From contig CAIJYR010000110.1 in the NCBI GenBank assembly GCA_903824965.1, positions 1 to 58,528 on the forward strand: a stretch of 58,528 nucleotides of DNA. The letters are read 5' to 3'. The notes under the pieces were generated by a model. The model had not been told where the DNA came from, searched no databases, and saw nothing but the letters and a program-made list of their open reading frames with translations. Below, piece by piece: positions 25,721-53,264 of this stretch. A program made the position numbers and the translations under genes. Positions within the stretch are counted from its first letter, which is position 1. Every line of letters starts with the position of its first letter. Source of the DNA: an uncultured Thiotrichales bacterium. GTDB lineage: Bacteria > Pseudomonadota > Gammaproteobacteria > CAIRSR01.

Positions 25721-25736
25721 TTGGACACAATCTTTC

Positions 25737-25804: not shown

Positions 25805-25830
25805 TTTTTAGATCAAGATTCTTGAAGATA

Positions 25831-25910
25831 TCAAAACCAAGATCAAACCACCCTGTCTCCCCCAGCCCATTCCCCCCAGAGGGGAAGGGGCTTAATCCTA
25901 AAGTCAAAAG
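25831..25910 (-). repeat. REP/MITE-like element R7 (inverted; subfamily CCCCTTCCCC; partner of R6)
   Basis: TCAAAACCAAGATCAAACCACCCTGTCTCCCCCAGCCCATTCCCCCCAGAGGGGAAGGGGCTTAATCCTAAAGTCAAAAG. Its reverse complement is highly similar to R4. Confidence 0.85.
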
Positions 25911-25956
25911 TGTTTTTATTTCTGCTACATCTTATTCTCCGGCAACAGGAGTTGTG

Positions 25957-26814: not shown

Positions 26815-26825
26815 ACGAGTGCACA

Positions 26826-27059
26826 ATGGGTACCATCGAAGAGGCAGTGCGCGGTTTTCTCTGGCAATTCATCAGTGACCAAGAGGTAGAGGGCGACCAT
26901 GATCTTTTTGGATCCGGAATGGTCAATTCACTGTTTGCCATGCAGTTGGTGTTGTTCGTCGAGAAGCAATATGGCATCACGGTAGCCAACGAAGACCTTG
27001 ATTACGAAAACTTTAAGTCGGTCAATGCGATCGTTGCCTTTATACAGTCCAAGCAGTAG
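26826..27059 (+). CDS. free-standing acyl carrier protein (FkbJ/ZmaD-like)
   Basis: About 77 aa with a GMVNSLFAMQLV phosphopantetheine-Ser motif. Possible starts are ATG 26826 or GTG 26811 (GTGA overlap with the upstream stop). Confidence 0.85.
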   Translation: MGTIEEAVRGFLWQFISDQEVEGDHDLFGSGMVNSLFAMQLVLFVEKQYGITVANEDLDYENFKSVNAIVAFIQSKQ

Positions 27060-27064
27060 AAGTA

Positions 27065-28270
27065 ATGGGAGTGGCTGTGATGGATTTTGACTTAACCGCA
27101 GAACAGCGTACCGCGCAAGCCGGATTCCGCCAGTGGGTTGAACAGCATGTAGTGCCGGTTGCCGATGCCAATGACAACCGCGAACAAACACCACCCGATC
27201 TCATTGCAAAATTAGCAGCACCCGGGTATCTCGGTGCCTTGGTCGCCAAAGAATACGGCGGCGAGGGCATGGATGCGTTGACGTGGGGTTTGCTGTGTGA
27301 GGAAGTGGGACGCGGCAGTGCATCCTTGCTGAGCTTGCTCACGGTGCATGGCATGGTGATCCAATCCATCGCAAAATGGGGTACTGCAGCACAGCGTGCA
27401 CGATGGTTGCCCGTATTGGCAACAGGTGAGACCATCGGTGCGTTTGGCCTTACCGAGCCGAATGTGGGCAGTGACGCAAAGAGCATTCAGAGCATCGCGG
27501 TGGCACAACCCGATGGCAGTTATGTGCTGAATGCAGAAAAGCGTTGGATATCCTTTGGCGCATCCGCCAACCTCATTTTGGTGATTGCCAAGGTCAATGA
27601 AAAACCCACGGGTTTTCTCGTCGAACGAAACATGCCTGGTTTCTCGTCAGAGCCGATTTATGGCATGCTCGGTTTTCGTTCCGCAAACATCGCCCGCCTG
27701 ATCATGCGTGATGTGATCATTCCACCAGAAAATCTGGTCGGAAAGGTTGGTTTTGGTTTCTCACACATTGCGGGCACCGCGCTCGATCATGGTCGTTACT
27801 GTGTCGGCTGGGGGTGTGTCGGACTCGCCCAAGCCGCGCTGGATGCTTCGCTCTCTTATTCAGGCGAACGCTATCAGTTCGACGTCACGCTGAATAAACA
27901 CCAGCTCATCCAAGAAATGTTGGCAGAGATGATTGTCAATGTGAAAGCTGCGCGGATGCTCAATTACCATTCGGCTTTCTTGAAGGATCGTGGCGATCCG
28001 TCATTGATCATGGAAACCTCGATGGCAAAATATTTTGCGTCACGGGTCGCCGCACAAGTGACCAATGCGGCTGTACAGATTCATGGGGCCAATGGTTGCT
28101 CAAGCGATTATCCGGTACAACGTTATTATCGAGACGCAAAAATTATGGAGATTATCGAGGGAAGCAACCAGATGCAGCAGATTATCATTGCAAAATCGGG
28201 CTATCAGCAGCATCTTGTGGCAAAACGTGCAGCGCGTCGATCCTCTGCAATAGAGGGGGAGGGGAAGTAA
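27065..28270 (+). CDS. acyl-CoA/ACP dehydrogenase, FAD-dependent (FkbI/ZmaE-like)
   Basis: 401 aa. ACAD signatures are MDFDLTAEQ, GAFGLTEPNVGSDA and QIHGANGCSSDYPVQRYYRDAKIMEIIEGSNQMQ. An alternative start is ATG 27080. Confidence 0.9.
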   Translation: MGVAVMDFDLTAEQRTAQAGFRQWVEQHVVPVADANDNREQTPPDLIAKLAAPGYLGALVAKEYGGEGMDALTWGLLCEEVGRGSASLLSLLTVHGMVIQSIAKWGTAAQRARWLPVLATGETIGAFGLTEPNVGSDAKSIQSIAVAQPDGSYVLNAEKRWISFGASANLILVIAKVNEKPTGFLVERNMPGFSSEPIYGMLGFRSANIARLIMRDVIIPPENLVGKVGFGFSHIAGTALDHGRYCVGWGCVGLAQAALDASLSYSGERYQFDVTLNKHQLIQEMLAEMIVNVKAARMLNYHSAFLKDRGDPSLIMETSMAKYFASRVAAQVTNAAVQIHGANGCSSDYPVQRYYRDAKIMEIIEGSNQMQQIIIAKSGYQQHLVAKRAARRSSAIEGEGK

Positions 28271-29313
28271 TGGCCAGTGGAAAAGGCAAAGATCACAAAA
28301 TCAAGTGTCTCGTCTGGGATCTCGACAATACCTTATGGCGTGGTACCCTGTTGGAAGATCAGGAAGTCACCCCCCATCCAGACGCACGGGCATTGATCAG
28401 AACGCTGGATGATCGCGGTATTTTGCAATCCATCGCTAGCAAAAACGATCACGCATTGGCAGAGAAAAAATTGCGTCAACTGGGATTGTTTGATTACTTT
28501 CTTTATCCGCAGATCAACTGGAGTGCAAAATCAGAGTCGATCCAGAACATCGCAACGCTCATCAACATCGGTATAGATACCCTTGCCTTTATCGATGATC
28601 AAGCCTTTGAGCGCGAAGAAGTGGCCTTCAGTCACCCCAAGGTGCTGACCATCGATGCTACAGAAATCGCACAGGTAGCGAATCTCGCGGTCATGCAGCC
28701 GCATTTTATTACAGAGGATTCTCGGCGGCGGCGGGAGATGTACCAGAGTGACCTTCGTCGGAAAGATGTCGAAGATCGCTTTGAAGGGCCGAAAGATGCG
28801 TTTCTAGAAACGCTCAATATGGTGCTAACGATTCAACGTGCCAAACAGGACGATTTGAAACGTGCGGAAGAACTGACACAACGTACCAACCAGCTGAATA
28901 CTACAGCGTATACCTATGATTACGATGAATTGAGCGCCTTCAGTCAGTCACCGGATTATTTGCTGTTGGTTGCCGGACTGGAGGACAAATACGGTACCTA
29001 CGGGAAAATCGGCCTAGTGTTGGTAGAAAAGCGTGAGAAAACGTGGTTGATCAAATTATTTCTCATGTCCTGTCGTGTCATGTCGCGTGGTGTTGGCACG
29101 GTCATGATCAACTATCTGCGGAACATGGCGCGGGCTGATGGGGTGGCCTTGGAAGCAGAGTTTGTCCAGAATGATAGAAACCGCATGATGTACATGACCT
29201 ATAAATTCAACCATTTCCGCGAGAAAGAAAAACGCGAAAACTGGATATTGCTTGAAAATGATCTGAGTCGTGAACAGGCATATCCGCAATATATGCGGAT
29301 GATCACAGAGTGA
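28270..29313 (+). CDS. FkbH-like HAD-IIIC phosphatase/glyceryl-ACP-forming enzyme
   Basis: Trimmed to ATG 28270 (TAATG overlap with the upstream stop). The HAD motif I is KCLVWDLDNTLWRGTL, followed by SIASKND and FIDDQAFERE. The C-terminal FkbH-type domain (CRVMSRGVG) is present. Confidence 0.85.
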   Translation: MASGKGKDHKIKCLVWDLDNTLWRGTLLEDQEVTPHPDARALIRTLDDRGILQSIASKNDHALAEKKLRQLGLFDYFLYPQINWSAKSESIQNIATLINIGIDTLAFIDDQAFEREEVAFSHPKVLTIDATEIAQVANLAVMQPHFITEDSRRRREMYQSDLRRKDVEDRFEGPKDAFLETLNMVLTIQRAKQDDLKRAEELTQRTNQLNTTAYTYDYDELSAFSQSPDYLLLVAGLEDKYGTYGKIGLVLVEKREKTWLIKLFLMSCRVMSRGVGTVMINYLRNMARADGVALEAEFVQNDRNRMMYMTYKFNHFREKEKRENWILLENDLSREQAYPQYMRMITE

Positions 29314-33556: not shown

Positions 33557-34624
33557 CTACTTGCAGATCGGCAGCGTGTGGTTGGACACGACGCTTGGGT
33601 ATAGGGTTCTTAGGCCACCACCCTCTCCAATCACCACGCTGTTGAAGGTGATACCCGATCCTGGATCTTTGATGAGATAGCGACAAGCCTGTTTGGTGCT
33701 GGGAGCACCAAGCAGGGTGATAGCGCGGGTTCCGTGTACCAACAGTTGTGGGCCATCCAGGGTGTAGAAATAGCCCGACGTATGCGGTGTTTGCACCCGT
33801 CGACCGCGCCATTCGTGTTCGATGCCTACGCTGTAGAGGATTCCAGGGAGGATTTCTTTCTGTCCCCGGTACGGTGCCATCAGCCCACCCCAGCCGCGAC
33901 GTTGCAGTTGCAGAAAGGCTCCACGGTAGTGTGGCCCGTCGATGCGTGTTGCGCTTGGCTCGCCGCAGAACACACGACGGAAACCATCCACCAAAAACCA
34001 GAGATCCGTAACCCGATCGAGCACAGCACGATGACCACAGTCGGTGCCTTTTTCGGGGCAGCCCAAGGCAGCGGTGAGATCCGCAAAGAGCGCATCTTCT
34101 GACTCGATGAGGGTTCGGAAGGCCCCTGGCTCTGGATAGTCTCCAGGATAGCCGCAGAGGGCAAGCAGACGCTCTTCCAGGGGAGTCACGGGGGGGGGCG
34201 ACGGCGTGATGTCGACGAGTTTATGGCGTGGATAGTCGACATACACCGGATTGTCGATTTGATCGAAAAAATGGTTAAACCGGAGTGTCCCTGAGTCCGC
34301 ACGGTATTCCCCGCAGTCTAGATCGGCCCAGCGCACCCGTGGCCGTGCATCTGGCACAATGATGCGTATCCAGCCACCCCCTCGCAGATCCAAAGTCAGC
34401 GCACGGTACGCCTTGCCAGGTTCTAGCTGGACATTGCCGGGGTTCAAGCCCTGCAGGGTGAGGGTCGCCGAACACTGATCGGAGGCAACGAACTCCCCAT
34501 GGGTCGCGACCACAGCAGCACCGGACTGCTCTGCCACCAGCCACAGGATAAGCCCAACGATCAAGAAGCCAATGTATTTGCTGGAGAGCACGAAACAGTC
34601 CTGTCGCAATACCGTTACAAGCAC
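33557..34624 (-). CDS. hypothetical secreted/membrane-anchored protein; weak XendoU-like resemblance
   Basis: 355-aa ORF with a GTG start. An N-terminal hydrophobic signal or anchor is present (IGFLIVGLILWLVAEQSGAAVVA). The segment LWFLVDGFRRVFCGEPSATRIDGPHYRGAFLQL loosely resembles the WF..SGFEHVFVGE..GFHNW core of EndoU nucleases, but the first catalytic His is replaced. Confidence 0.5.
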   Translation of the reverse strand: MLVTVLRQDCFVLSSKYIGFLIVGLILWLVAEQSGAAVVATHGEFVASDQCSATLTLQGLNPGNVQLEPGKAYRALTLDLRGGGWIRIIVPDARPRVRWADLDCGEYRADSGTLRFNHFFDQIDNPVYVDYPRHKLVDITPSPPPVTPLEERLLALCGYPGDYPEPGAFRTLIESEDALFADLTAALGCPEKGTDCGHRAVLDRVTDLWFLVDGFRRVFCGEPSATRIDGPHYRGAFLQLQRRGWGGLMAPYRGQKEILPGILYSVGIEHEWRGRRVQTPHTSGYFYTLDGPQLLVHGTRAITLLGAPSTKQACRYLIKDPGSGITFNSVVIGEGGGLRTLYPSVVSNHTLPICK

Positions 34625-35227: not shown

Positions 35228-36112
35228 ATGACAGACCATTCCCATATGCTCGCGATTATGTTTGCTGACATTAGTGGCAGCACAGCACTCTTTGAGAAAC
35301 TGGGGGATGTGGCGGCTCGCCGGATCGTGGCGGGCTGTCTCACCAAGCTGACCGACGCCACACTTGCCCAGGCGGGTACAGTCATCAAATCCGATGGAGA
35401 TGACATTTTGTGTACCTTTCCCACTGCACAGGCGGCCGTAAAAGCCAGTGTAGCCATGCATGAAGCCCTGGAAAGGGTGGATGCCGGACAGACCCGCATG
35501 GGTGCCAGGATTGGTATCAACTACGGCCCTGTCCTCCTGGAAGGCGGAGATATCTACGGCGATACGGTGAACGTAGCGGCGCGTGTGGCTGCTCTCACCA
35601 AAGTGAACCAGACCCTGTGCACGGTGCAAGTGATGGAATCGCTTGGCATATCGTCTTTCGATACGCGCTACCTGGGGCGTATGCAGGTGAAAGGGAAGCA
35701 GGAAGAGATCGAGATCCATGAGATTATCTGGAAGCACGAGGATGTAACTTCTATGGGTGGTTTTGCGCCCAAACCAGTTGTGGCGGTGCGGCGATTGTTG
35801 CGTTTGGTGTTAGACGATCAGCGTGTCGAGATTGGCCCCCAGCGTCCGAGTGTAACCCTAGGGCGTAAGAACGCCGATCTGGTCACAGCCGAGCCATTGG
35901 CTTCTCGGATGCACGCTAAGATCGAGTATCGAAGCGGGAAGTTTATGATCAAAGATCAGAGCACCAACGGAACTTTTGTGCGCACCAAAGACGGGCGTGA
36001 GGTTGTCCTTCACCTGGAGGAGTTTCCTTTGCAGGGAAGCGGTTCTATTGGCCTGGGTTGTTCCCCCGATCCAGAGAGTCCCCACGTCCTGCATTTTGAC
36101 GCGGACGACTAG
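35228..36112 (+). CDS. class III adenylate/guanylate cyclase domain fused to a C-terminal FHA domain
   Basis: Cyclase motifs are LAIMFADISGSTALFEKLGD, GDDILCTF and IGINYGPVLLEGGDIYGDTVNVAARV. The FHA domain reads VTLGRKNADLVTAEPLASRMHAKIEYRSGKFMIKDQSTNGTFV. Confidence 0.85.
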   Translation: MTDHSHMLAIMFADISGSTALFEKLGDVAARRIVAGCLTKLTDATLAQAGTVIKSDGDDILCTFPTAQAAVKASVAMHEALERVDAGQTRMGARIGINYGPVLLEGGDIYGDTVNVAARVAALTKVNQTLCTVQVMESLGISSFDTRYLGRMQVKGKQEEIEIHEIIWKHEDVTSMGGFAPKPVVAVRRLLRLVLDDQRVEIGPQRPSVTLGRKNADLVTAEPLASRMHAKIEYRSGKFMIKDQSTNGTFVRTKDGREVVLHLEEFPLQGSGSIGLGCSPDPESPHVLHFDADD

Positions 36113-36161
36113 ACTGTTTACAAACGAACAGCTACCCCCCTGCTGGAGAAACAGAAAAACC

Positions 36162-36884
36162 ATGCACAGCAGACCATTCTCTCCCTACTTGCTGCTGGCG
36201 CTGTTCTTGACCAGCCAGTGTGTATTGCCCTCGTTTGCGGAGTCCACACAGGAGATCCAGAGTCTGGATTCTGTCGCAGCGTCTGTTCAGCATTTCCTCC
36301 TCGGATTACAGGAGGGGGGGGCGGGACAAGCCTCCGTTGTGGTGGATACGCTGGATTCTCGCTTGCGCCTTAGCGCGTGCACTGCGCCGCTGGAGGTGTC
36401 GCTGGCCCCAGGGAGTCGTTCCAGTGGTCGAACGTTGGTGGCTGTGCATTGCACGGCTCCCCATGCCTGGTCGCTGTACGTCCCTGCGAAGGTCTCGGTG
36501 CCTGTGTTCGTGGTGATTGCTGCGCACCCTCTGTTTCGCGATCAGGTCATCCGCGCTGCGGATATCAGCGTCGAAAAACGGGACGGAGGAGATATCTCCG
36601 GGAGCTACGTAAGCGATCCCAATCAAATGATCGGCAAAATAGCTACACGCGTCCTCAGCGCAGGCATGATCTTGACCCCTGATGCAGTCCAATCGGTTCG
36701 ACTGATTCATCGAGGCGATCGAGTGAGTCTCGTGGCAGAAGGCAGCGGATTGTCGGTACGGAGTGTTGGTATTGCGCTTGCCGATGCGGGTGTCGGAGAA
36801 CATGTCTCCGTGCGCAACGAAAGTTCTCAGCGCGTCGTAGAAGGCACTGTGAACCAAGACGGTGCCGTGGTGATTCACTGGTGA
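36162..36884 (+). CDS. flgA: flagellar basal-body P-ring formation chaperone FlgA (SAF domain)
   Basis: Trimmed to ATG 36162 (signal peptide MHSRPFSPYLLLALFLTSQCVLPSFAES). The C-terminus ...IHRGDRVSLVAEGSGLSVRSVGIALADAGVGEHVSVRNESSQRVVEGTV is typical of FlgA. Confidence 0.75.
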   Translation: MHSRPFSPYLLLALFLTSQCVLPSFAESTQEIQSLDSVAASVQHFLLGLQEGGAGQASVVVDTLDSRLRLSACTAPLEVSLAPGSRSSGRTLVAVHCTAPHAWSLYVPAKVSVPVFVVIAAHPLFRDQVIRAADISVEKRDGGDISGSYVSDPNQMIGKIATRVLSAGMILTPDAVQSVRLIHRGDRVSLVAEGSGLSVRSVGIALADAGVGEHVSVRNESSQRVVEGTVNQDGAVVIHW

Positions 36885-42460: not shown

Positions 42461-45400
42461 ATGCGCAACATCCACCGTGCCCGTGACCAAGAAGACGAAC
42501 GACGATTCCAAAAAGCTTTTCAGCGCCACGAGCAAGGCGATCTGGCCGGTGCAGAGGTACTCTATCGGCAGATTTTGGCATCCCGCCCGAAACATTCTCA
42601 AGTGTTGTACCTACTCGGCACCCTAGAAAGCCAGCGTGGTCACTACGCAGAGGCAGAACAGTACCTCACCAAAGCACTGACGTTACGTCCTGACTGGCCA
42701 GAAGCCTTGAACAACCTAGGCTTGGCACTGTTCAGTCAAAACCGATTAGATGAAGCGGAAGCCATCCTCCGCCGCGCCCTGACCACGGAGCCTGATTATG
42801 CAGACGCGCTCAACAACCTCGCAGGCGTACTAGAGAAAAAAGGCCAGCTCGAAGATGCAATGGCGCTCTATCAGCGCACCGTGGCACTCAAACCAAGGGA
42901 CGTCAAGGTTCACTACAACCTGGGTCTCCTGTTGCGCCGATTAACACGCATGGAAGAAGCAGCACTCTGTTTTGAACACGCGCTCAGCATTGAACCCAAC
43001 CATGTAGAGGCCGCCAACACCCTCGCAACCATTCTGAAGATCCTTGATCGGCTGAACGATGCCGAACGCTGGTTACGACATGCTTTGCAACAGCAACCGA
43101 ACCACTACCAGGCCCACAACAATCTTGCCGCCGTCCTCCAAGACCAGGATCGCCTCTCGGAAGCGATGGAGGAATATGGTCGCGCCTTGTCGTTACGCCC
43201 TGACGAACCGCTGATGCAATGGAACCGCGCCTTCATTCTCCTCGCACTTGGGCAACTGCAAGAGGGGTGGAGCGCCTATGAATGGCGACGTTCCGTGTTC
43301 CAATGGCAACCGTTACCGTTCCCTGAGTGGGACGGAAGCAGCCTCACGGACAAGACCCTGCTGGTTTTTGCGGAACAGGGTCTGGGGGACGAATTGTTGT
43401 TTGCTTCCTGCTTTCCGGATCTCCTACAACGGGCCAGACACTGCTTGTTCGAGTGCGATCCACGCTTAGCCCCGTTGTACCGACGATCCTTTCAGAACGC
43501 TACCGTTATCGGGGTACGACGCTCCAACCGTGCTTGGATAGAACATCTCCCCCCCCTGGATGTACAAATCCCGGCGGGTAGTTTGGCACGTTACCTACGT
43601 CCCACTGTGAGCGATTTTCCCACCAGTGCAGGGTATTTGGTGGCGGATCCCGTCGCCGCCATCCATTGGCGCGAACAGATCCAAGCGTTGGGGCCGGGTC
43701 TCAAAGTGGGCATCACATGGCGCAGTGGATTGACACGAGAAGGACGACACCGCCATTACAGCCGTTTGACGGAATGGGGGGCTTGTTTCAACGTTCCGTA
43801 CGTGCATTTTATCAATCTTCAGTACGACAACTGTGCTGAAGAACTGGCTGTGGCAGAACGTCTTTTCGGCGTGACGATTCACGTTTTCCCAGGTTTGGAT
43901 CTGTTCAATGACCTTGATGGTACGGCGGCGTTGGTTGTGGGGTTGGATCTCGTCATCGCTGCCGGAAACGCTACCGGAGAAATCGCAGCGGCCCTCGGCG
44001 TACCGGTATGGCGCTTAGAGTCCCATGGGCGTGCTTGGACTTCCCTTGGTACGGATGCGTTCCCTTGGCACCCGATGGTACAGGTGTTTCGCCAAACCAC
44101 ACGCGGTGATTGGCAAACCCTTTTGGATCGTGTAGCCCATGCGTTGGCTGCTTTGGCCAACCCTTTGGCCAACCAACCAGAAGATTCGTCTGCCTTTTTG
44201 GAACCCTGTGTGGCGGATGCTCACGAAGGCGTCGAGCTGGATACCCTGGAGACGCTGGCCAGTGCACGAGAACACCTACAGGCAGGTCGGTTGGCAGAAG
44301 CACGCCTAGGGTGCGATACCCACCTGGCACGACATCCTGCGGATCCGGTCGCGCTCGATCTGTTCGCTGCGGTGGTCAATGCCGCAGGCGACCCAGAAAG
44401 CGCCATCCATGTCTTACAACAGGCCATCGCCATCAGCCCCCATGTTGCCATCTACCGTGGACACTTGGCGGGCATTCTTGCGGCCATGGGGCGGATCGGG
44501 GAGGCAGAAGCGGCCTACCGTGCAGCACTCCGTCTACTCCCCAATTGGGCACACGCCCACAACGATCTCGGCAACTTGCTCCGCGCCGAAAAACGCATTG
44601 CAGAAGCAGAGCGTTGTTATCTCAGTGCGTTGCGCTACAAACCCGATTTGGTAGAAGCGCACAACAACCTAGGCACCGTCCTAGAACTGCAAGGACGCAT
44701 CCACGAAGCAGAAGCCGCCTATCGAGGTGCACTGCGGTTGCGGCCTCATTTCCCTGAGGGTTGGTACAACTTGGGCAACTGCCTAGGGGATCTCGGTCGT
44801 CTCTCGGAGGCTGTCGCAGCCTATCGGGAGGCGCTCACCCTGCGTCCTGAATACGCACAGGCACAATTTTACTTGGGCGTGGCCCTACAGCGCGATGGTC
44901 AGATTGCATCCGCTGAAGCCGCTTACCGCGAGGCGTTGGCCCTCTACGCGCACCCTTGGCCCGATGTACAGAACCAGTTGGCCAATCTATTGATGGATCA
45001 AAAGCGTTGGAGCGAAGCAGAAACCCTGTACCGAGAAGCCTTGGCGGTGACACCGAGAAGCCCTGAGTTGCACAGCAATCTTGGCAACTGTTTGCAGCTT
45101 CAAGGGCATTTTGCCGAAGCAGAAACACTCTGCCGAGAGGCCATTCATCTTGCGCCTGATCATGCGCCTGCTTGGAACAACCTCGGCAATACATTGCAAA
45201 GTTTGGATCGTCCTCTGGAAGCACAGGCCGCTTTTCGTGCCGCGATCACGCACGACCCAGACATGGCCTTTGCCCACAGTAACCTCGGGAATGCCTTGCG
45301 TGAAGCGGGTCTGCTCCAAGAAGCTTCCCTCCACGATCGACGTGCCGTTGCGTTACGTCCGGATTTGGGCGGAACCTGGCTTAACTTGGGCAATACGTTG

Positions 45401-48400
45401 CAAGCGGCTGGCAACCTCCTGGAAGCGGAAAGTTGTTTCCAGCGTGCATTGGATTTGGGGATAGAAGTCGCAGCCTTAAGTGTTGGCAAAATACTGTATG
45501 AGCAGGGTCGCCCGGGTGCAGCGGTCGAGTGCATGAGCGAGTGGGTGCAACGTCGCCCAGACGATCCAGAGATGCGCTGGAACCTGGCCATGCCTTTGCT
45601 GGCGCTCGGTGATCTCACGGAGGGTTGGGAAGCCTACGAAGCCGGACGCCATTTGCCCAAACAGCAGGGGAGGCGACAAGACTTTCACCATTTTACGGAA
45701 TGGGATGGCAGTTCGCTTGTGGGGCAAACCATCTTGGTATACGCCGAGCAGGGGCTAGGGGACGAGATCCTGTTCGCGTCTTGTCTGCCTGATCTACTGG
45801 AACAAGTGGGGCATTGCATCGTAGAGTGTGATCGACGGTTGGCACCCCTCTACCGCCGCTCTTTTCCGAACGCGACCATCGCGGGCATCGAACGGGACAG
45901 GCAAGAGTGGGTGAAGGGACTCGTAGAAGTCGATGCGGTGGATCGAGAGGTGCCGATTGGGAGCTTACCGCGCTTTCTCCGCCGGAAGCTGAGCGACTTT
46001 CCCGATCGTACTGCCTACCTCGTGGCCGATCCAGCACGGGTCACGGTGTGGCGCAAGCGACTGGAAGGCCCTGAGATCAAAGTAGGCATTACCTGGCGCA
46101 GCCGTCTTGGGAATGCGTTGCGCAGCCGACATTACAGCCGACTGGAAGACTGGGGGGGGGTCTTTGCGGTTTCTGGTGTGCGCTTTGTCAACCTGCAATA
46201 CGATGATTGTGCCGAAGAACTAGCCGCTGTACGGGCATCCCTCGGCATAGACATCCTGTCCTTCCCAGAAGTCGATTTGATGAATGATTTGGAGGAAGCG
46301 GCCGCCCTGTCTGCCAGTTTGGATTTGGTGATTGCAGCGGGGAATGCAGCCGGAGAAATAGCGGCTGCGCTGGGGATACCGGTCTGGCGTCTGGAGGCTT
46401 TTGGGCGTCACTGGACGTCCCTTGGGACAGAAACCTTTCCCTGGCATCCACGGGTTCAGATCTTTCGCCAACCACAGCTTGGGAACTGGGGCGATGTCTT
46501 GAGGCGGGTCGCAGAAGCACTGAAAACATTTGTGTCCTCACCACCGAGCACCGCTCGTCCCGTGGATCTCTACCACCAGGGGCTGGAACGGCAAGAAAAC
46601 GACGAACTCGATGCCGCCATCGCCTGCTACGAGGAAGCGTTGCACCATGACCCTGGACAAGCAGAGACGCACAACAACCTTGGGAATGTGCATCTGAAAC
46701 GGGGCGAGTGGGCTGCTGCAGAGGATTGTTATCAACACGCACTGCGGATACGCCCTGATTACGCAGAGGCATGGAACAACTTGGGGGTTTTGTTTGGCAA
46801 GCGTAGACAGATTCAAGAGGCTACGGTGTGTTACCAAACGGCCTTAGGACTGCGTTCGGAGCTGTTTGAGGCCCGTTATAACCTGGCCAATATGCTCCAA
46901 GAAGAAGGGGATCCCATCACTGCTGAAGAACACTTTAGGACAGCCTTACAACAGGGGGTAGACACAGCCTTGTTGTGGAATGGATTGGGTCTTGCGGTGC
47001 GTGATCAAGGGAACACAAAAGAGGCGCTTGCTTGTTTTGAAAAGGCACAAGAACGTGCACCGGAGGATGTGCGGGTACGCTGGAACATTGGTTTGACGCA
47101 TTTGATACAAGGCGAGTTGCTGCTTGGTTGGGAGGGGTATGAGTGGGGTCATGACAGAATGCGTCGTACCCTGCGGGGATTTTCCTTTCCGCGCTGGGAC
47201 GGTTCTTATGCACCCGAATCGACTTTGTTGGTGTACGCTGAGCAGGGTATAGGGGACGAAATCCTATTTGCGTCTTGTTTGCCTGATCTACTGCCCTGGG
47301 TGGGACGATGTATCGTAGAATGCGAACCCAGGTTAGCAAGCCTCCTCCGTCGATCTTTTCCCTCGGTAGAAGTGTACGGAGCCACGCGAGAGAATCAAGA
47401 CTGGCTTGTGAATGCAGGACACGTTGATTTTCAGTGTCCGATTGGGAGTTTGGGTTCGTATTTACGCCGTCATTTGCTAAATTTTCCACGCACGCCAGGG
47501 TATCTTCTCCCTGACCAAACACAGCGCACTCAATGGCGAAAGCGCCTTTCTGCCTTGGCGGGTGCAAAAAGAACGGTCGGTATTTCTTGGCGTAGTCGTT
47601 TGGTGGGTGGCGGACGGGCACGTTTCTATTCACGCCTGGCAGACTGGGGGAGGGTGTTCGCTGTCTCTGGGGTGGTGTTCGTGAATCTCCAATACGATGA
47701 TTGTACCGAGGAACTCGCCGAGGTACGATCGGTCTTTGGAAGAGATGTGGTACAGTTCTCCGATCTAGATTTGTTAAACGATATAGAGGGTGTGGCTGCT
47801 TTGGCCAGTGCTTTGGATCTGGTCATTGCACCACCGAACAGTGTGGCGGAGATTGCTGCGGCGGTTGGCGCAGAGGTGTGGCGGTTGGATGCAGCGTTAC
47901 CGAATTGGCCCACCTTAGGAACGGAAGGAATGCCGTGGCATCCTACCATGCGTCTCTTTCGTCAGACGCATTTGGGAGACTGGGCAGGGGTACTCAAAAC
48001 CGTGGCAGAGGCACTTACCCTACGTGTTGCAGGATCGGCCTTAAGCCCCTGGATAGAGAGCCGCCTATCCTGTCAAGAACACCACGAAACGGGAGAACGA
48101 ACGGCGCAATTCTTTGCCCAGTTGGTGCAACCAGGATCCCGTGTAGTACAGGTGGGTACCCAGGGAAGTGTATTGACATTGGTATTGGCTCGATCCGTCG
48201 GGGAAACAGGATCTTTGATTGTCTGTGAGGAACGACCAGAGCCATTGCACAGTATCCAGGCTAGTGTGCTACAACATGGATTCCGCCAGGTGTACTGTCG
48301 ATCGCAGCGAATCGGGGATCAATCGGGAGAATGCCCTGCGTGGCGTGCCTATCCTTGGGATCTGCCTAGGAGCGATGACCCTGATGTTGATATGGCCCAT

Positions 48401-48670
48401 GCGAATCAACCAATATCCTGTTGTACCCTGGATGACCTCGCTTTGTCTGCGTGCGATCTCTTGATCATCCATGCGGAAGGCCGTGAGGCAGAAATACTGG
48501 CAGGTGTTTGGCAGACCTTGGCACGCCACCGTCCACTCCTCGGACTGGGTCGGTATCGATATGAAGTTTCCATGAGCCTGATTGCCTTGCTCGGTACGAA
48601 GGGCTACCAAACCCTTGCCCAAGGCATTGGACAGGAAGACGCACTGCTCATCGCCTACCCAATGGCATAA
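42461..48670 (+). CDS. giant multidomain protein: 3 x [TPR array + GT9 (heptosyltransferase-like) glycosyltransferase domain] + C-terminal FkbM-family methyltransferase
   Basis: 2069 aa. ATG 42461 has a CAGGAGA SD. Many 34-aa TPR units follow the ...A...Y..AL...P....A..NLG... pattern. The block WDGSxL..xTxLVxAEQG(L/I)GDE(L/I)LFASC(F/L)PDLL...ECxxRLAxLxRRSF is repeated three times, as is ...VGI(T/S)WRS...NLQYDxCxEEL...DLVIAxxNxxxEIAAAxG. The C-terminus is Methyltransf_21-like (VVQVGTQGSVLTLVLARSVGETGSLIVCE...LLIIHAEGREAEIL). Confidence 0.85.
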   Translation: MRNIHRARDQEDERRFQKAFQRHEQGDLAGAEVLYRQILASRPKHSQVLYLLGTLESQRGHYAEAEQYLTKALTLRPDWPEALNNLGLALFSQNRLDEAEAILRRALTTEPDYADALNNLAGVLEKKGQLEDAMALYQRTVALKPRDVKVHYNLGLLLRRLTRMEEAALCFEHALSIEPNHVEAANTLATILKILDRLNDAERWLRHALQQQPNHYQAHNNLAAVLQDQDRLSEAMEEYGRALSLRPDEPLMQWNRAFILLALGQLQEGWSAYEWRRSVFQWQPLPFPEWDGSSLTDKTLLVFAEQGLGDELLFASCFPDLLQRARHCLFECDPRLAPLYRRSFQNATVIGVRRSNRAWIEHLPPLDVQIPAGSLARYLRPTVSDFPTSAGYLVADPVAAIHWREQIQALGPGLKVGITWRSGLTREGRHRHYSRLTEWGACFNVPYVHFINLQYDNCAEELAVAERLFGVTIHVFPGLDLFNDLDGTAALVVGLDLVIAAGNATGEIAAALGVPVWRLESHGRAWTSLGTDAFPWHPMVQVFRQTTRGDWQTLLDRVAHALAALANPLANQPEDSSAFLEPCVADAHEGVELDTLETLASAREHLQAGRLAEARLGCDTHLARHPADPVALDLFAAVVNAAGDPESAIHVLQQAIAISPHVAIYRGHLAGILAAMGRIGEAEAAYRAALRLLPNWAHAHNDLGNLLRAEKRIAEAERCYLSALRYKPDLVEAHNNLGTVLELQGRIHEAEAAYRGALRLRPHFPEGWYNLGNCLGDLGRLSEAVAAYREALTLRPEYAQAQFYLGVALQRDGQIASAEAAYREALALYAHPWPDVQNQLANLLMDQKRWSEAETLYREALAVTPRSPELHSNLGNCLQLQGHFAEAETLCREAIHLAPDHAPAWNNLGNTLQSLDRPLEAQAAFRAAITHDPDMAFAHSNLGNALREAGLLQEASLHDRRAVALRPDLGGTWLNLGNTLQAAGNLLEAESCFQRALDLGIEVAALSVGKILYEQGRPGAAVECMSEWVQRRPDDPEMRWNLAMPLLALGDLTEGWEAYEAGRHLPKQQGRRQDFHHFTEWDGSSLVGQTILVYAEQGLGDEILFASCLPDLLEQVGHCIVECDRRLAPLYRRSFPNATIAGIERDRQEWVKGLVEVDAVDREVPIGSLPRFLRRKLSDFPDRTAYLVADPARVTVWRKRLEGPEIKVGITWRSRLGNALRSRHYSRLEDWGGVFAVSGVRFVNLQYDDCAEELAAVRASLGIDILSFPEVDLMNDLEEAAALSASLDLVIAAGNAAGEIAAALGIPVWRLEAFGRHWTSLGTETFPWHPRVQIFRQPQLGNWGDVLRRVAEALKTFVSSPPSTARPVDLYHQGLERQENDELDAAIACYEEALHHDPGQAETHNNLGNVHLKRGEWAAAEDCYQHALRIRPDYAEAWNNLGVLFGKRRQIQEATVCYQTALGLRSELFEARYNLANMLQEEGDPITAEEHFRTALQQGVDTALLWNGLGLAVRDQGNTKEALACFEKAQERAPEDVRVRWNIGLTHLIQGELLLGWEGYEWGHDRMRRTLRGFSFPRWDGSYAPESTLLVYAEQGIGDEILFASCLPDLLPWVGRCIVECEPRLASLLRRSFPSVEVYGATRENQDWLVNAGHVDFQCPIGSLGSYLRRHLLNFPRTPGYLLPDQTQRTQWRKRLSALAGAKRTVGISWRSRLVGGGRARFYSRLADWGRVFAVSGVVFVNLQYDDCTEELAEVRSVFGRDVVQFSDLDLLNDIEGVAALASALDLVIAPPNSVAEIAAAVGAEVWRLDAALPNWPTLGTEGMPWHPTMRLFRQTHLGDWAGVLKTVAEALTLRVAGSALSPWIESRLSCQEHHETGERTAQFFAQLVQPGSRVVQVGTQGSVLTLVLARSVGETGSLIVCEERPEPLHSIQASVLQHGFRQVYCRSQRIGDQSGECPAWRAYPWDLPRSDDPDVDMAHANQPISCCTLDDLALSACDLLIIHAEGREAEILAGVWQTLARHRPLLGLGRYRYEVSMSLIALLGTKGYQTLAQGIGQEDALLIAYPMA
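42500..44150 (+). other. module 1: TPR array (about 42500-43240) + GT9-like domain (about 43250-44150)
   Basis: The EWDGSSL motif lies at about 43325 and GLGDELLFASCFPDLL at about 43380-43430. Confidence 0.7.
44230..46540 (+). other. module 2: long TPR array (about 44230-45560) + GT9-like domain (about 45570-46540)
   Basis: The EWDGSSL motif lies at about 45700 and GLGDEILFASCLPDLL at about 45755-45805. Confidence 0.7.
46560..48030 (+). other. module 3: TPR array (about 46560-47090) + GT9-like domain (about 47100-48030)
   Basis: The RWDGSYA motif lies at about 47192 and GIGDEILFASCLPDLL at about 47245-47295. Confidence 0.7.
48090..48667 (+). other. FkbM-family methyltransferase domain (approximate)
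   Basis: FAQLVQPGSRVVQVGTQGSVLTLVLAR...CCTLDDLALSACDLLIIHAEGREAEILAG. Confidence 0.65.
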
Positions 48671-48699: not shown

Positions 48700-49245
48700 A
48701 TGAACGAGATTGATTCTTTTGTGGCCACCTACGGCTACTTTGCCGTCTTTGCGGGTACCCTCCTAGAGGGAGAAACCATTTTGGTCGCTGCTGGCTTTGC
48801 TGCCCATCATGGCCTGCTGGCTTTGCCATGGGTGATTGTAGTCGCGATTGTGGGCGCAACATTGGGCGATCAGTTGGCTTTTCTGATAGGTCGGTGGAAA
48901 GGAGAGGCGTTGATCAATCGTTTCGCACTCCTCTCCGAATATCGGCCACGGGTTCATGCCCTTTTAGAGCGGTATGATGCGATGTTTATTATTGTCATTC
49001 GCTTTGTGTATGGATTCAGAATTGCAGGCCCTGTGATCCTGGGTACGAGTCATATACCGATGTTCCGATTTGCCATTTTTAACAGTCTTGGTGCACTTCT
49101 TTGGGCACCCATTGTTGCAGGTGCAGGATACAGTTTCGGTCTTGCGATCAATACTGCACTGGCTCATTTACAATTGGCAGAAGAAATACTCTTGGGAATC
49201 GCAGTGACCGCACTGGTTCTCTGGTGGTGGCGGGCAAAACGTTGA
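48700..49245 (+). CDS. DedA-family (SNARE-associated) inner-membrane protein
   Basis: YGYFAVFAGTLLEGETILVAAGFAAHHG and FVYGFRIAGPVILG motifs; 181 aa. Confidence 0.9.
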   Translation: MNEIDSFVATYGYFAVFAGTLLEGETILVAAGFAAHHGLLALPWVIVVAIVGATLGDQLAFLIGRWKGEALINRFALLSEYRPRVHALLERYDAMFIIVIRFVYGFRIAGPVILGTSHIPMFRFAIFNSLGALLWAPIVAGAGYSFGLAINTALAHLQLAEEILLGIAVTALVLWWWRAKR

Positions 49246-49262: not shown

Positions 49263-52200
49263 ATGATGCGTCTGTTGCGTGCTTTATGGCTTTTGTGTTG
49301 GTCAGTGTTCGCAACCAGTGTCATTGTTGCCGCTGTGGCGTTGAGCCTGATTCGGCTGCTGCTGCCCATGGCGCAAAATTATCGAGAAGACATTGCTGCT
49401 TGGATCAGCAGTGCAGTCGGACACGAGGTACATATTGCTGGTCTGGATGCACGATGGTCTGGTGTTCGGCCTGTATTGCAATTGCGGGGGGTGACGATTG
49501 CCAGTATGCAAACTGGCCTCATCGAAATCGACACCGTCGATGTGAGCCTGGGGATTGCTGCTTCGCAGCACACATGGCGTCTAGTGCCGAGCAGATTGTC
49601 CATTGTGCATCCACGCATCACCTTGTTTGCCCATTCTGCCTCTCAACCCTTCGAGCATCCATTCGCGGGATTCGCGGGATTCGCAGGATGGCCCCTCGGT
49701 GCCAGTCGTGTGCGTGTCGAGGATGCACGGGTCTGTGTAGACACCCGCGAACTGCGTGGATGCTTCACGGGGAACGCTTCCCTACGCAGTGATGGCAACC
49801 GATTGATGGGAGAGGCCGATCTGCGTCTTTCTGCTCCCTGGGGTAAGACGGTTCATTTCGCATTGGATGCCTATACCAACGACAATGTGTGGGCGGGAGC
49901 ATGGTACCTGGAGACCAAAGGTCTACACCTTGCACCCTGGATACACCGATGGTACCCAACCGTGGTCGTGGATGGATTCCTGAATCTGCGGGTCTGGGGA
50001 AACCTGGCGCTGACCCAATGCGAAGGTGTGATCGATCGGCTGCTGATACAGGCTGATGACACAAGTGAGGGGTCTCGAACCCTTGCAGAGATGGTGGACG
50101 GTTTTTCCTGGAAAAAAGAAACAGCTGGTTGGCAAGTGGATATAGCGGGGCTGCGTCCCCTCGGCACACCTGGTGGGGCGACGGTGCAGGTGCAACGGGA
50201 TGTACAAAATCTGTGGGTGCGTGCGGGGAACATTTCCTTAAAGGAAGTGGCTTTCCTTGCCAGCCTAGACGGTGTCCTGGAGGGAAAAACGGCGACCCTT
50301 ATGAGGGCATTGTCTCCCCAAGGACAGTTGGCAGAATTGCGATTGCATCTACCCCTTGCCGAAAGCTCCGTCGAACATCCTGCCGATAATCCCAGCGAAA
50401 ACCCCACAGCAGGATTGAGCCTTTCTACCTGGAAAAACGTCGATCTGCAAACCCGTTTCACGGACGTCTCGGTGCGTCCTTGGCAGGGGATTCCTGGGAT
50501 AGAAGCACTGTCAGGCTCGTTGCGTATTGTGAACGGAACAGGGAGCCTGGATTTTGAGGATCTTCATGGGACACTGTATCTGGCGAGTTTGTTCGCTACC
50601 CCCTGGGCCATCGATCGACTGACGGGAAGCCTCACGGTGCAACAGGACTCACTAGGTTGGCACCTCACAGCCCCGAACCTCGTCCTCGCCAACCCTGACC
50701 TTGCACTCAAGGCGGGGGGTAGGTTGTTCTTGCCGAGCACAGGATTGAGCCCGGGGTTATTAGGCATAGGGTTGTCACCGCGCTTGGACATAGAGGCCAG
50801 TTTTTCACGCGGGGATGGCAGTCGGCTGTCCACGTATCTACCACGCCGCATCATGCCCTACCGTGCGGCCGCTTGGCTCGATCGTTCGATTTTGGCAGGA
50901 AAAATCCGAGAGGGCACTGTCCATTTTCATGGCCATGTTGCCGATTTCCCTTTTGATCACAATGAAGGCACCTTCGTGGTCAATGCGCAGATCACAGGGG
51001 GTGAAGTGAGTTATGCACCCGACTGGCCAGCCCTGCACGCGCTTGACGTGACCCTTGGCTTCCATGGCCGTGCGATGGAGATTCAAGCAGAGGGGGGCCG
51101 TATCTTAGACAGTGCCTTGGATCCAACCAGCGTAGTCATTTCTGATCTGGATCACGAACCACCGTTGCTACAGATACGAGGTCGTGTGCATGGCCCTCTG
51201 GCCGATGTACCCCGATTGCTCAAGGAAACGCCCCTGGTACACCGCTATGGCCCCTATGTTGCCACCTTGGAAGGCAAGGGGAAGATGTCCCTCACCTTAG
51301 GGGTGGACATGTACACGAAAAAACCGATTGAGATGAGTCGGTTGGAGGGCCATTTGGATCTGCAGAAAAATGACCTGCGCTGGCATGATCCTGACGTTGC
51401 GTTGGAAGGCACTTCGGGAAGCCTCGCTTTTTCCACAGAGGGGATACACGGCCAGCAGATTGAGACGCACCTTTTTGGCTTGCCTGTGCAGTTGAGTGTG
51501 CAATCGCAACGTGCGGCAGGAGGCCATTCAACGACGGTGATGGAGGTACGGGGCACCCTCGAACCGAACACGCTCAAAACATACCTCCCCCCCGCTCTCC
51601 TAAAACGCTGTCGTGGACAAACCAGCTGGCAAGCGACGATTACACTGCCTGAGATACCCCCAGGGGGCAAGGCAATGCCCGTTGTACAAGTGGCATCCGA
51701 CCTGCGTGGATTGGCACTAGATTTGCCCGAACCCCTTGCAAAATCGGCTGAACAGCCACAACCCCTGCAACTACAAACGGCGCTGGGGGGGAACCAGCAC
51801 AAAATACAGATAAGCTACGGAACGCTTGCAAGCGCCACGCTGGAATTGGACAAAGACAGCACTTTTCTTCAAGGGGATGTCCGTTTGGGGAAAGCGACCA
51901 CAACACCCCCCAAAATCTCGATGCCTCGACCAGCGGGTTTGTACCTTGCTGCGGATCTGACGAAAACCCGCCTAGAAGATTGGTTGGATCTGGCCTCAGG
52001 TCTTGGGGGGACAACCGACAGCCACAGGACTGCACTGGGCTTTGGGATGGATGCGAAGATCGGAGACTTGCGTGTGGGGAGTTACGATTTCCATGGGGTT
52101 GCGCTTTCTGCGGGTTCGCAAGGTGAAGGATGGGAGGCACACTTTAACGCACAGGAAACCACAGGTCGTCTCCATGGATCGGGTGCGGGTGGGATGGGCC

Positions 52201-53264
52201 TGACCTTGGAGCTGGATCGGCTCACCCTCGTGGACAATGTGGAAAAACACACCAAAAAAGACACCCCCGAAGAGACCTCCACCGACCCCCGGCATCTGCC
52301 TCCCTTCCAGATCCGTTGTGCCGATCTACACCTCGCTTCGGTGATCCAACAGGAACAGGGCAAAGAGAAAACAACCAAAACGGAGGACATGCCCCTAGGA
52401 CGCTTGGAAATCACTACACGCCCCGACCCAGAGGGTATGACCATCACAGGTCTGCACCTACACGCGCCCACCTTTCAGATCGATGGTACGGGATCTTGGC
52501 ATACGCAACGGTCTGATCACCTGCATGAGGGTGGGCAGCACTCTTCTTTTGATCTCACTTCTTTCGATCTCAGTCTGGATACGCCAAACCTCGGAAATGC
52601 ACTCAATACCCTTGGATACGCAGGGACGCTAGAGGGCGGCGTAGGAAAAGCGAGCCTTCATACCGAGTGGCCTGGCGCTCCGAGTGCCTTTGCGGTCGAA
52701 CCTATGATGGGTACCCTCGCGATTACATTGGACAAAGGACGGTTGGTGCATGTGAATCCAGGGAGTACCGGTCGAATCTTTGGTCTCCTGAGTCTGCAAG
52801 CCTTGCCAAGACGCCTGGCCTTCGATTTCAGCGATGTGTTCCGCAAAGGACTGAGCTTCGATCGGATGCACGGCGACTTTCGGATTGATCACGGCAACGC
52901 ATACAGCGACAACCTTGAACTTCGTGGGCCAGCGGCGAACATTGCGGTAGAGGGACGTACCGGATTGATCGCACGAGACTACGACCAAGTGGTGACGGTC
53001 ACACCGAATGTCGGTGGAACCTTGCCCCTTGCGGGTGCTTTGGCAGCAGGCAGTGTTGGTTTGGGATTCGGGGTGGGGGCGGCGATTGTCCTGGCGCAAC
53101 AACTCTTCCAATCCCAACCCCTCCAGCCCCTCCGACACCTGATTCCCTTCGGACTCGATCAAATCACCAACATCCGCTATACCTTGCGCGGATCGTGGTA
53201 CCATCCCGTGATGGAGCCATTGCGCGTAGAAGCTTCTGAGAAAAAAAACCACACTAATCCCTAA
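49263..53264 (+). CDS. yhdP: YhdP/AsmA2-family large envelope protein (DUF3971 + AsmA_2 C-terminus)
   Basis: Trimmed to ATG 49263 (N-terminal anchor MMRLLRALWLLCWSVFATSVIVAAVALSLIRLLLP). The C-terminus is GRIFGLLSLQALPRRLAFDFSDVFRKGLSFDRMHGDFRIDHGNAYSDNLELRGPAANI. Length is 1333 aa. Confidence 0.85.
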   Translation: MMRLLRALWLLCWSVFATSVIVAAVALSLIRLLLPMAQNYREDIAAWISSAVGHEVHIAGLDARWSGVRPVLQLRGVTIASMQTGLIEIDTVDVSLGIAASQHTWRLVPSRLSIVHPRITLFAHSASQPFEHPFAGFAGFAGWPLGASRVRVEDARVCVDTRELRGCFTGNASLRSDGNRLMGEADLRLSAPWGKTVHFALDAYTNDNVWAGAWYLETKGLHLAPWIHRWYPTVVVDGFLNLRVWGNLALTQCEGVIDRLLIQADDTSEGSRTLAEMVDGFSWKKETAGWQVDIAGLRPLGTPGGATVQVQRDVQNLWVRAGNISLKEVAFLASLDGVLEGKTATLMRALSPQGQLAELRLHLPLAESSVEHPADNPSENPTAGLSLSTWKNVDLQTRFTDVSVRPWQGIPGIEALSGSLRIVNGTGSLDFEDLHGTLYLASLFATPWAIDRLTGSLTVQQDSLGWHLTAPNLVLANPDLALKAGGRLFLPSTGLSPGLLGIGLSPRLDIEASFSRGDGSRLSTYLPRRIMPYRAAAWLDRSILAGKIREGTVHFHGHVADFPFDHNEGTFVVNAQITGGEVSYAPDWPALHALDVTLGFHGRAMEIQAEGGRILDSALDPTSVVISDLDHEPPLLQIRGRVHGPLADVPRLLKETPLVHRYGPYVATLEGKGKMSLTLGVDMYTKKPIEMSRLEGHLDLQKNDLRWHDPDVALEGTSGSLAFSTEGIHGQQIETHLFGLPVQLSVQSQRAAGGHSTTVMEVRGTLEPNTLKTYLPPALLKRCRGQTSWQATITLPEIPPGGKAMPVVQVASDLRGLALDLPEPLAKSAEQPQPLQLQTALGGNQHKIQISYGTLASATLELDKDSTFLQGDVRLGKATTTPPKISMPRPAGLYLAADLTKTRLEDWLDLASGLGGTTDSHRTALGFGMDAKIGDLRVGSYDFHGVALSAGSQGEGWEAHFNAQETTGRLHGSGAGGMGLTLELDRLTLVDNVEKHTKKDTPEETSTDPRHLPPFQIRCADLHLASVIQQEQGKEKTTKTEDMPLGRLEITTRPDPEGMTITGLHLHAPTFQIDGTGSWHTQRSDHLHEGGQHSSFDLTSFDLSLDTPNLGNALNTLGYAGTLEGGVGKASLHTEWPGAPSAFAVEPMMGTLAITLDKGRLVHVNPGSTGRIFGLLSLQALPRRLAFDFSDVFRKGLSFDRMHGDFRIDHGNAYSDNLELRGPAANIAVEGRTGLIARDYDQVVTVTPNVGGTLPLAGALAAGSVGLGFGVGAAIVLAQQLFQSQPLQPLRHLIPFGLDQITNIRYTLRGSWYHPVMEPLRVEASEKKNHTNP

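Follow-up and report, generated by a model that had tools for sequence, protein, structure and literature searches.

Results

A 2069-residue protein built of three TPR and glycosyltransferase-like units

The gene described here lies on contig CAIJYR010000110.1 (assembly GCA_903824965.1) of an uncultured Thiotrichales bacterium, a stretch of 58,528 nucleotides (nt) that is referred to below as the window. It forms a complete open reading frame (ORF) on the forward strand (42461..48670), read in a single frame from ATG to stop and encoding 2069 amino acids (aa), with GGAG placed 8 nt 5' of the ATG and no obvious sigma-28-type promoter in the 122 nt upstream, as read by eye. The product consists of three successive units, each made of a tetratricopeptide repeat (TPR) array and a paralogous module of ~325 aa, followed by a C-terminal domain of ~200 aa. 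The TPR arrays, identified by their 34-aa register and by Pfam TPR matches, comprise 7 repeats of 34 aa in the first unit (aa 13-250; 42497..43210, forward strand), 13 in the second (aa 596-1037; 44246..45571, forward strand), and 5 in the third (aa 1368-1537; 46562..47071, forward strand), so that the array of the second unit is the longest. A Pfam and NCBIfam scan of the whole protein returned TPR families only, whereas a hidden Markov model (HMM) built from the three blocks of the window and their database relatives detected three domains and no others (aa 247-567, 1033-1359, and 1534-1856; E ~1e-125 to 1e-132). A preliminary sequence-only reading of this DNA had proposed this order of three TPR and glycosyltransferase units followed by an FkbM-like domain, with the longest array in the second unit, and both statements agree with the module HMM and the TPR data; it had also estimated the modules to be 60-70% identical, which proved too high, the measured pairwise identity being 47-58% over ~330 aa.

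Module 1 (43199..44161, forward strand; E 1.4e-132), module 2 (45557..46537, forward strand; E 1.1e-131), and module 3 (47060..48028, forward strand; E 2.2e-125) carry the loop EQG[LI]GDE at aa 305, 1096, and 1594 and the motif DLVIA at aa 496, 1288, and 1786, respectively. When scored at the 56 positions whose conservation across the module family reaches 85% or more, they keep 49, 50, and 51 of these residues, so none of the three looks degenerate. Neither a signal peptide nor a transmembrane segment was found in the protein, its N terminus is hydrophilic, and the maximum Kyte-Doolittle hydropathy over 19 residues is 1.62, reached in the core of the C-terminal domain; the protein is thus predicted to be cytoplasmic and to act there.

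Orthologues, module history, and family size

A Thiotrichales metagenome-assembled genome (MAG; locus L001) encodes a 2067-aa orthologue with 73% identity and the same three modules, and shares the divergent upstream ORFs of the window. In Gammaproteobacteria bacterium CCP3-SC15AN1 (locus L002, 51-8105), the orthologue is 2684 aa long and 57% identical, with four modules and the same C-terminal domain. Compared position by position across orthologues, the modules are 72-78% (module 1), 65-76% (module 2), and 69-75% (module 3) identical, and the fourth module of the L002 protein is an extra, more divergent insertion at the second position. Module number therefore changes within the window clade, but because the modules are orthologous by position, the triplication is older than these lineages, and selection has maintained every unit.

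These orthologues also bear on whether the ORF might be an artefact in which assembly or sequencing errors falsely joined a methyltransferase gene to three paralogous genes arranged in tandem, a reading that would find some encouragement in the unfused tandem occurrence of the same components in two other loci of the family (L008 and L005). Against it, an identical 2069-aa product is present on other assembled contigs (e.g. ENA ERZ27313345 k141_714846), two further genomes encode full-length orthologues with the same unbroken order, which in one case comprise four modules, and the longest DNA repeat within the ORF is 134 nt at 66-77% identity. A false join, which the sequence-only reading had named among the circumstances that would undo its proposal, is therefore regarded as very unlikely.

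Most database relatives of the modules are 470-525 aa long and combine a single TPR array with a single module. When 1.84 billion cluster representatives were searched exhaustively with a query made of module 3 and the C-terminal domain, 34,530 matched at E ≤ 1e-3, a count that may include methyltransferase-only matches, 23,636 at ≤ 1e-10, and 5,026 at ≤ 1e-30. The best 150 representatives, 810-3140 aa long, all had 2-6 matched stretches, which speaks further against an assembly artefact and indicates that multi-module proteins of this family are common. In the literature, we found no description of multi-module FlmG-type proteins, of an FlmG-FkbM fusion, or of a relationship between FlmG and GT9 enzymes. 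The giant form with three units and a methyltransferase-like domain is thus undescribed, whereas its repeated unit belongs to a class that is already known, that of FlmG.

The modules have a GT9-like fold and a distinct donor pocket

The isolated modules had no match to any Pfam or NCBIfam model, PF01075 included, even at E ≤ 10, and a sequence search of PDB chains returned only weak matches to WaaC and WaaF (E ~0.3); PF01075 was weakly matched by 23 of 41 family members (best E 1.6e-5). The AlphaFold2 model of module 2 (pLDDT 92.5, pTM 0.91) has a GT-B fold, and its best PDB matches in Foldseek were GT9 enzymes, namely WaaF (1psw), a Veillonella GT9 protein (3tov), WaaC, and TibC, the top list comprising 1psw, 3tov, 2h1h, 2gt1, 6dfe, 4rap, and 4rb4 with E values from 5e-8 to 1e-4 and TM scores of 0.45-0.59. 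Profile comparison by hhalign with Escherichia coli WaaC, WaaF, and WaaU gave a probability of 92% (E 6e-7, 247 columns) and aligned the G-D of the EQGLGDE loop with Gly-12 and the catalytic base Asp-13 of WaaC, by profile alignment rather than structural superposition. On this alignment, the predicted catalytic residues of the three modules are Asp310 (nt 43388-43390, forward strand), Asp1101 (nt 45761-45763, forward strand), and Asp1599 (nt 47255-47257, forward strand), an Asp that is conserved in 38 of 40 family members.

The C-terminal motif of the modules, which reads DLVIAAGNATGEIAAALG in module 1 (nt 43946-44005, forward strand), DLVIAAGNAAGEIAAALG in module 2 (nt 46322-46381, forward strand), and, in a divergent form, DLVIAPPNSVAEIAAAVG in module 3 (nt 47816-47875, forward strand), was aligned with the WaaC segment VVSVDTGLSHLTAAL. 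Here, WaaC Asp-261, Thr-262, and His-266, which we take to be residues of the ADP-heptose donor-sugar pocket, are replaced by Gly, Asn, and Glu in modules 1 and 2 and by Pro, Asn, and Glu in module 3. As judged from the structural model and the alignments, the fold and general base of the modules are GT9-like and the donor pocket differs from that of ADP-heptose enzymes, and ADP-heptose itself is an unlikely donor. Because the isolated modules match no Pfam model, the label GT9-like rests on fold and profile evidence. It had been applied to these domains from their motifs, and it holds for the Foldseek fold matches, the remote profile similarity, and the Asp of the EQGxGDE loop in all three modules, but not for membership of PF01075 or for the residues that bind ADP-heptose in WaaC.

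Three Cys residues (FASC...C..EC; aa 1108, 1119, and 1123 in module 2, with equivalents in modules 1 and 3) are conserved across most of the family and are jointly replaced by Thr, Leu, and Val in the subfamily of FlmG proper, which is marked by the motif GFSN; a fourth Cys, considered with these as a possible metal site, does not co-vary. The joint replacement of the three may point to a structural or metal-binding role that they have in common.

The repeated unit is homologous to the flagellin glycosyltransferase FlmG

FlmG of Caulobacter crescentus is a cytoplasmic flagellin O-glycosyltransferase of 596 residues with an N-terminal flagellin-binding TPR domain and a GT-B domain at residues 309-596 (PMC7591256), the latter of which decides between the transfer of pseudaminic acid (Pse) and legionaminic acid (Leg) (PMC7591256; bioRxiv 10.1101/2022.03.25.485807). 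It has been reported as confined to Caulobacterales. Among the metagenomic loci recovered with the module profile, one (L060) contains a gene of 596 codons adjoining flbT, flaF, and a flagellin gene. The encoded protein starts with MSRKSA, reads SGQDLKGK from codon 309, and ends with ALRDFATP. The published C. crescentus primers FlmG_N, FlmG_int_N, FlmG_E, and flmG_ko3 match this gene at 18/19, 21/23, 16/19, and 17/18 bases, and the matches fall exactly on the start codon, codon 309, and the stop. Together with the number of codons and the position of codon 309, these matches identify the gene as an orthologue of flmG in an organism closely related to C. crescentus, and it was used as the reference for comparison in place of the C. 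crescentus protein.

In BLASTP against this orthologue, module 1 was 39.5% identical over 339 aa (E 2e-69), module 2 39.7% over ~335 aa (E 3e-70), and module 3 35% over 333 aa (E 4e-54). By this homology, the repeated unit of the window protein is an FlmG-type unit. The protein shares with the FlmG class an N-terminal TPR domain followed by a C-terminal GT-B domain, in this case three times over, as well as sequence homology and a predicted cytoplasmic location. In agreement with the flagellin-binding function of the FlmG TPR domain (PMC7591256), and by analogy with it, the TPR arrays of the window protein are presumed to bind the acceptor protein. A search with an alphaproteobacterial homologue adjoining flbT returned matches named only "tetratricopeptide repeat protein" and none named FlmG.

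Membership of the OGT/SPINDLY family (GT41) was also considered and was rejected, as PF13844 matched neither the full-length protein nor any module on its own; genuine TPR-GT41 genes occur as separate neighbors of family members in two loci (L005 and L011). Of the two classes of TPR-containing glycosyltransferases invoked by the sequence-only reading, the FlmG type is thus retained, with 35-40% identity to the flmG orthologue, and the OGT type is not.

Relatives of the modules adjoin flagellin, pseudaminic acid, and pilin genes

One two-module protein of 1408 aa, which ends in a methyltransferase domain, comes from a Dechloromonas MAG, where its gene lies between an operon for PseB, PseC, PseF, PseG-H, and PseI and the genes for flagellin, fliD, and fliK. 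The best single-module database match, with 50% identity to module 2, comes from a locus with flgK, a 701-aa flagellin, csrA, fliW, and flaG, which also carries a separate TPR-FkbM gene and four tandem TPR-module genes and so presents an unfused version of the components of the window protein. Other relatives adjoin flbT-flaF or fliF/flgE/flgD/fliK; flagellar or nonulosonic acid linkage was seen in L003, L008, L012, and L014, whereas the gene contexts of L002, L005, and L016 were uninformative. The betaproteobacterial locus L005 (3297-14666) carries a TPR-GT41 gene encoding 845 aa followed by three separate genes of the TPR and FlmG type, and no flagellin or pilin gene was found within 10 kb.

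A broader view was obtained from 80 metagenomic loci, recovered by scanning contigs with the family profile and screened with marker proteins from annotated loci. Flagellar genes were found in 27 of these, pilin genes in 11, and Pse genes only in 5, the 37 loci with no marker being mostly short contigs; among the 18 loci of at least 18 kb, the corresponding numbers were 10, 6, 2, and 0. For each of the three window modules, the closest relatives other than orthologues (45-51% identity) were found in flagellar or Pse loci only. Therefore, whereas the genes next to the window gene offer no direct clue to its substrate, as had been remarked from the sequence, the contexts of its relatives point to flagellin.

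The pilin-linked loci, in turn, raise the possibility that an enzyme of the same class acts on type IV pilin or on another exported or filament protein. A pilin gene (PF07963/PF00114) adjoins family members in the 11 loci mentioned and in 3 further contexts that were looked up, these loci often carry TPR-GT41 and FkbM genes as well, and flagellin linkage is lacking in the window. However, the pilin-linked modules fall into separate clades with a distinct C-terminal motif, SV(C/Q/D)T..HLxGALG, in which the His is kept, whereas flagellar-linked modules have either GFSN..NIAAACG (FlmG proper) or xAPT/SPAT..ELAGALG. The window motifs AAGN..GEIAAALG (units 1 and 2) and APPN..AEIAAAVG (unit 3) have Glu in place of His and fit the Glu-containing flagellar-linked class. 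Because, in addition, the closest relatives of the window modules all belong to flagellar or Pse loci and no pilin gene was found in the scanned parts of the window, a pilin or other non-flagellin acceptor for the window protein is considered improbable. As for the pilin-linked loci themselves (L010, L011, L015, L027, L029, L047, L049, L056, L057, L066, L074, L078, L082, and L083), they often contain 2-4 tandem copies of the TPR and GT9-like gene next to the TPR-GT41 and FkbM genes, and their arrangement suggests a cytoplasmic pilin-modifying system, of which we found no description in the literature searched.

The C-terminal domain has a methyltransferase fold with a degenerate SAM loop

The C-terminal domain (aa 1866-2069; 48056..48667, forward strand) is assigned as an FkbM-like domain of class I methyltransferase fold on the basis of subthreshold PF05050 and TIGR01444 matches, AlphaFold2, and Foldseek. 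Its scores are below the FkbM cut-offs, with 19.5-19.8 against 22.7 bits for PF05050 (E 1e-3) and 31.3 against 37.7 bits for TIGR01444 (E 2.5e-7), and a word-indexed protein search with this domain alone gave no matches. PF05050 was matched by 7 of 9 homologous C-terminal domains of relatives (best E 9e-16). The AlphaFold2 model (pLDDT 89.9) shows a class I methyltransferase fold, and the top PDB match in Foldseek was FkbM (2py6; E 1.1e-7, TMq 0.60). The fold thus supports the FkbM assignment made by the sequence-only reading, but the family scores do not reach their cut-offs, and the loop expected to bind S-adenosylmethionine (SAM) is degenerate. Motif I reads VVQVGTQGS, with no acidic residue and no G-x-G-x-G, and the orthologues of the window clade have QIGTHGD, QIGSGDE, and QIGVEQS, whereas more distant relatives have the canonical (D/E)IG(A/S)GxG, e.g. 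EIGAGEG, EVGSGLG, and DIGSGAG. Likewise, the FkbM signature is HAEGRE in the window and D-x-E-G-x-E in relatives. With motif I and D-x-E-G both degenerate, SAM binding may have been weakened or lost.

These features invite the question of whether the protein is in part a pseudo-enzyme, in which at least one glycosyltransferase module or, mainly, the methyltransferase domain is dead and serves in docking or regulation. The degeneration of motif I across the window clade and the reading HAEG in place of D-x-E-G agree with this, and module 3 contributes its divergent C-terminal motif and a Pro-to-Glu exchange at a conserved position. On the other hand, all three modules keep the EQGxGDE loop and 49-51 of the 56 conserved positions and are 65-78% identical to their positional orthologues, and in the methyltransferase domain the conserved Glu after strand 2 is retained and the fold is confidently predicted. 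On balance, partial loss of catalysis is a minority prospect that we hold to be rather unlikely, with most of its weight falling on the methyltransferase domain.

Gene neighborhood of the window

Downstream of the glycosyltransferase gene and on the same strand lie genes for a DedA/VTT-domain protein (48700-49245, forward strand; assigned by Pfam), which starts 30 nt past the glycosyltransferase stop, and YhdP (~49266-53264, forward strand; assigned by Pfam and by gene calls on the identical contig), as well as for an LTXXQ protein and Ugd, the ugd gene being 6 kb away. The glycosyltransferase, DedA, and YhdP genes are possibly co-transcribed. Upstream and divergent are genes for a rhodanese, a class I methyltransferase, an RDD protein, and an SDR protein. 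A DedA-sized ORF of 182 aa is also found downstream of the L001 orthologue (L001 10658-11206).

This neighborhood would suit a GT9-type enzyme of envelope glycolipids that acts on the lipopolysaccharide (LPS) core or a lipid-linked acceptor, with the TPRs as scaffolds: the best structural matches of the modules are LPS heptosyltransferases, the downstream DedA and YhdP proteins act on envelope lipids, ugd is close, and the DedA-sized ORF is conserved in L001. It is not common to the L002 orthologue, however, and the protein itself has no membrane segment, no PF01075 match, and no conserved ADP-heptose-binding residues. Direct homology to FlmG, a protein glycosyltransferase, and the fact that the family is strongly linked to genes for flagellin, pilin, and Pse and not to those for LPS argue in the same direction, making a glycolipid acceptor very unlikely.

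The sole flagellar gene found in the window is flgA (35976-36884), from which the organism is presumably flagellated; neither flgM nor flgN was recognized among the small ORFs that follow it. Just upstream of this isolated flgA are genes for a toxin-like protein with a C-terminal bacterial EndoU nuclease domain (33557-34624, reverse strand) and for an adenylate/guanylate cyclase-FHA protein (35228-36112, forward strand). Elsewhere in the window, a hybrid nonribosomal peptide synthetase-polyketide synthase cluster (12327-29313) encodes an aminotransferase-C-A-T protein of 1776 aa and a KS-AT-KR-ACP protein of 1513 aa, together with a DUF697 protein, an ABC exporter, a type II thioesterase, a 3-hydroxyacyl-CoA dehydrogenase, an acyl-CoA dehydrogenase, and a HAD hydrolase. 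Its portion at 22-30 kb has a GC content of 0.48-0.51, compared with ~0.56 in the flanking DNA. A gene at 9775-11985 encodes a bacterial Roco-type protein of 736 aa with leucine-rich repeats followed by Roc GTPase and COR-A/COR-B domains, and a two-component system (6659-9566) adjoins it.

Discussion

Our analyses suggest, with a probability of about 0.6, that the window protein belongs to the FlmG class of protein O-glycosyltransferases, as a soluble, multi-module member that works in the cytoplasm and whose acceptor is most probably flagellin; class membership is held with much more confidence than the identity of the acceptor. By analogy with FlmG, each TPR array would dock an unfolded or chaperone-free acceptor before export, and the adjacent GT-B domain, probably descended from the GT9 heptosyltransferase fold, would pass a nucleotide-activated sugar to Ser/Thr, with Asp310, Asp1101, and Asp1599 of the invariant EQG-L/I-G-D-E loop as the predicted general base. 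Because the TPR arrays differ in length, the donor-pocket motifs differ, and each module is conserved by position, the three units are most likely not redundant and probably differ in sugar, site, or flagellin paralogue. If still active, the FkbM-like domain at the C terminus would add methyl groups to the glycan after its transfer; given the degenerate SAM loop of the window clade, it may instead bind without catalyzing. The sequential or multi-site glycosylation, with a methylated sugar, that the sequence-only reading had proposed would be a plausible outcome.

Several observations weigh against this reading. No flagellin, Pse/Leg, or other flagellar filament gene is present in the 58.5-kb window, nor was any such gene found near the L001 or L002 orthologues, so that the linkage to flagellin and nonulosonic acid genes typical of the FlmG class is missing from all three; the conserved neighbors encode a rhodanese, a methyltransferase, an RDD protein, DedA, and YhdP, none of them flagellar. 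As the window lacks a flagellin gene, the acceptor is inferred from the contexts of relatives; it is of relevance here that the Pse genes of C. crescentus are themselves dispersed around the chromosome. The existence of a sizeable sister clade linked to type IV pilin genes means that flagellin is not the sole possible acceptor for the family. The replacement of the WaaC donor-binding residues in all modules does not allow the donor sugar to be named, and the FkbM-like domain scores below its family cut-offs and has lost the acidic residue and glycine pattern of motif I.

A more far-reaching, and at present tentative, proposal is that the polypeptide works as a single-chain "assembly line", in which the three positionally conserved FlmG-type units, each equipped with a TPR array for docking the acceptor and a donor pocket of its own, would add different sugars to a flagellin glycan or extend each other's products and the FkbM-like domain would cap the glycan. 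FlmG would then be a minor offshoot of a very extensive family of cytoplasmic filament-protein glycosyltransferases, derived from GT9, that includes forms with 2-6 modules and the pilin-linked clade.

FlmG is so far the only cytoplasmic flagellin glycosyltransferase in which the acceptor-binding and donor-selecting domains have been shown to be separable and swappable. Our data indicate that this TPR and GT-B unit is widespread, which contradicts its restriction to Caulobacterales at the family level, that it descends from the heptosyltransferase fold, and that copies of it have been joined time and again into giant proteins of 2-6 modules, some with a methyltransferase domain. If the modules do differ in sugar or site, such proteins would represent a natural form of modular, programmable protein O-glycosylation and a source of parts for glyco-engineering. 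In addition, the pilin-linked sister clade suggests a so far unrecognized cytoplasmic route of pilin modification.

Among known systems, the closest is FlmG of C. crescentus and Brevundimonas subvibrioides, with which the window protein shares the order of an N-terminal TPR domain and a GT-B domain of ~290-325 aa, a homologous glycosyltransferase, and the predicted cytoplasmic location, and relatives of the window modules lie in flagellin, flbT-flaF, and Pse loci. The two differ in that FlmG is a single unit of 596 aa, whereas the window protein has three units and a fused methyltransferase-like domain; the C-terminal motif is GFSN...N-I/L-A in FlmG and AAGN/APPN...E-I-A in the window, which also keeps the three Cys residues that are absent from the FlmG subfamily, and FlmG has been reported only from Caulobacterales, whereas the window protein is gammaproteobacterial and has no adjoining flagellar genes. 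Structurally, the modules come closest to the GT9 enzymes, namely WaaC and WaaF, whose acceptor is LPS, and TibC/BAHT, whose acceptors are autotransporter proteins; shared features are the G-D catalytic loop after strand 1 and a C-terminal helix motif of the form DxV(I/V)S..(T/N)....(L/I)A.A(L)G.P, and TibC illustrates that the same fold can glycosylate proteins in the cytoplasm. Unlike these enzymes, the window modules have no PF01075 match and lack WaaC Asp-261 and His-266, and they carry TPR arrays in a protein that is not membrane-associated. FkbM genes and methyltransferase-GT41 fusions are frequent in flagellin glycosylation islands, and those of enterobacteria and Geobacillus, with methyltransferase-fused GT41 proteins or stand-alone FkbM, likewise combine a glycosyltransferase with a methyltransferase (PMC4875605, PMC5109656), but their enzymes belong to GT41 and have single catalytic units, whereas the window protein is FlmG/GT9-like with no PF13844 match. 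Finally, Maf-1 of Shewanella (bioRxiv 10.1101/2023.12.03.569772) resembles the proposed system in that flagellin, selected by a TPR domain, receives nonulosonic acid from a catalytic domain linked to that TPR domain, but it does so with a GT-A-like MAF_flag10 domain and a C-terminal TPR domain, and is not homologous to the window modules.

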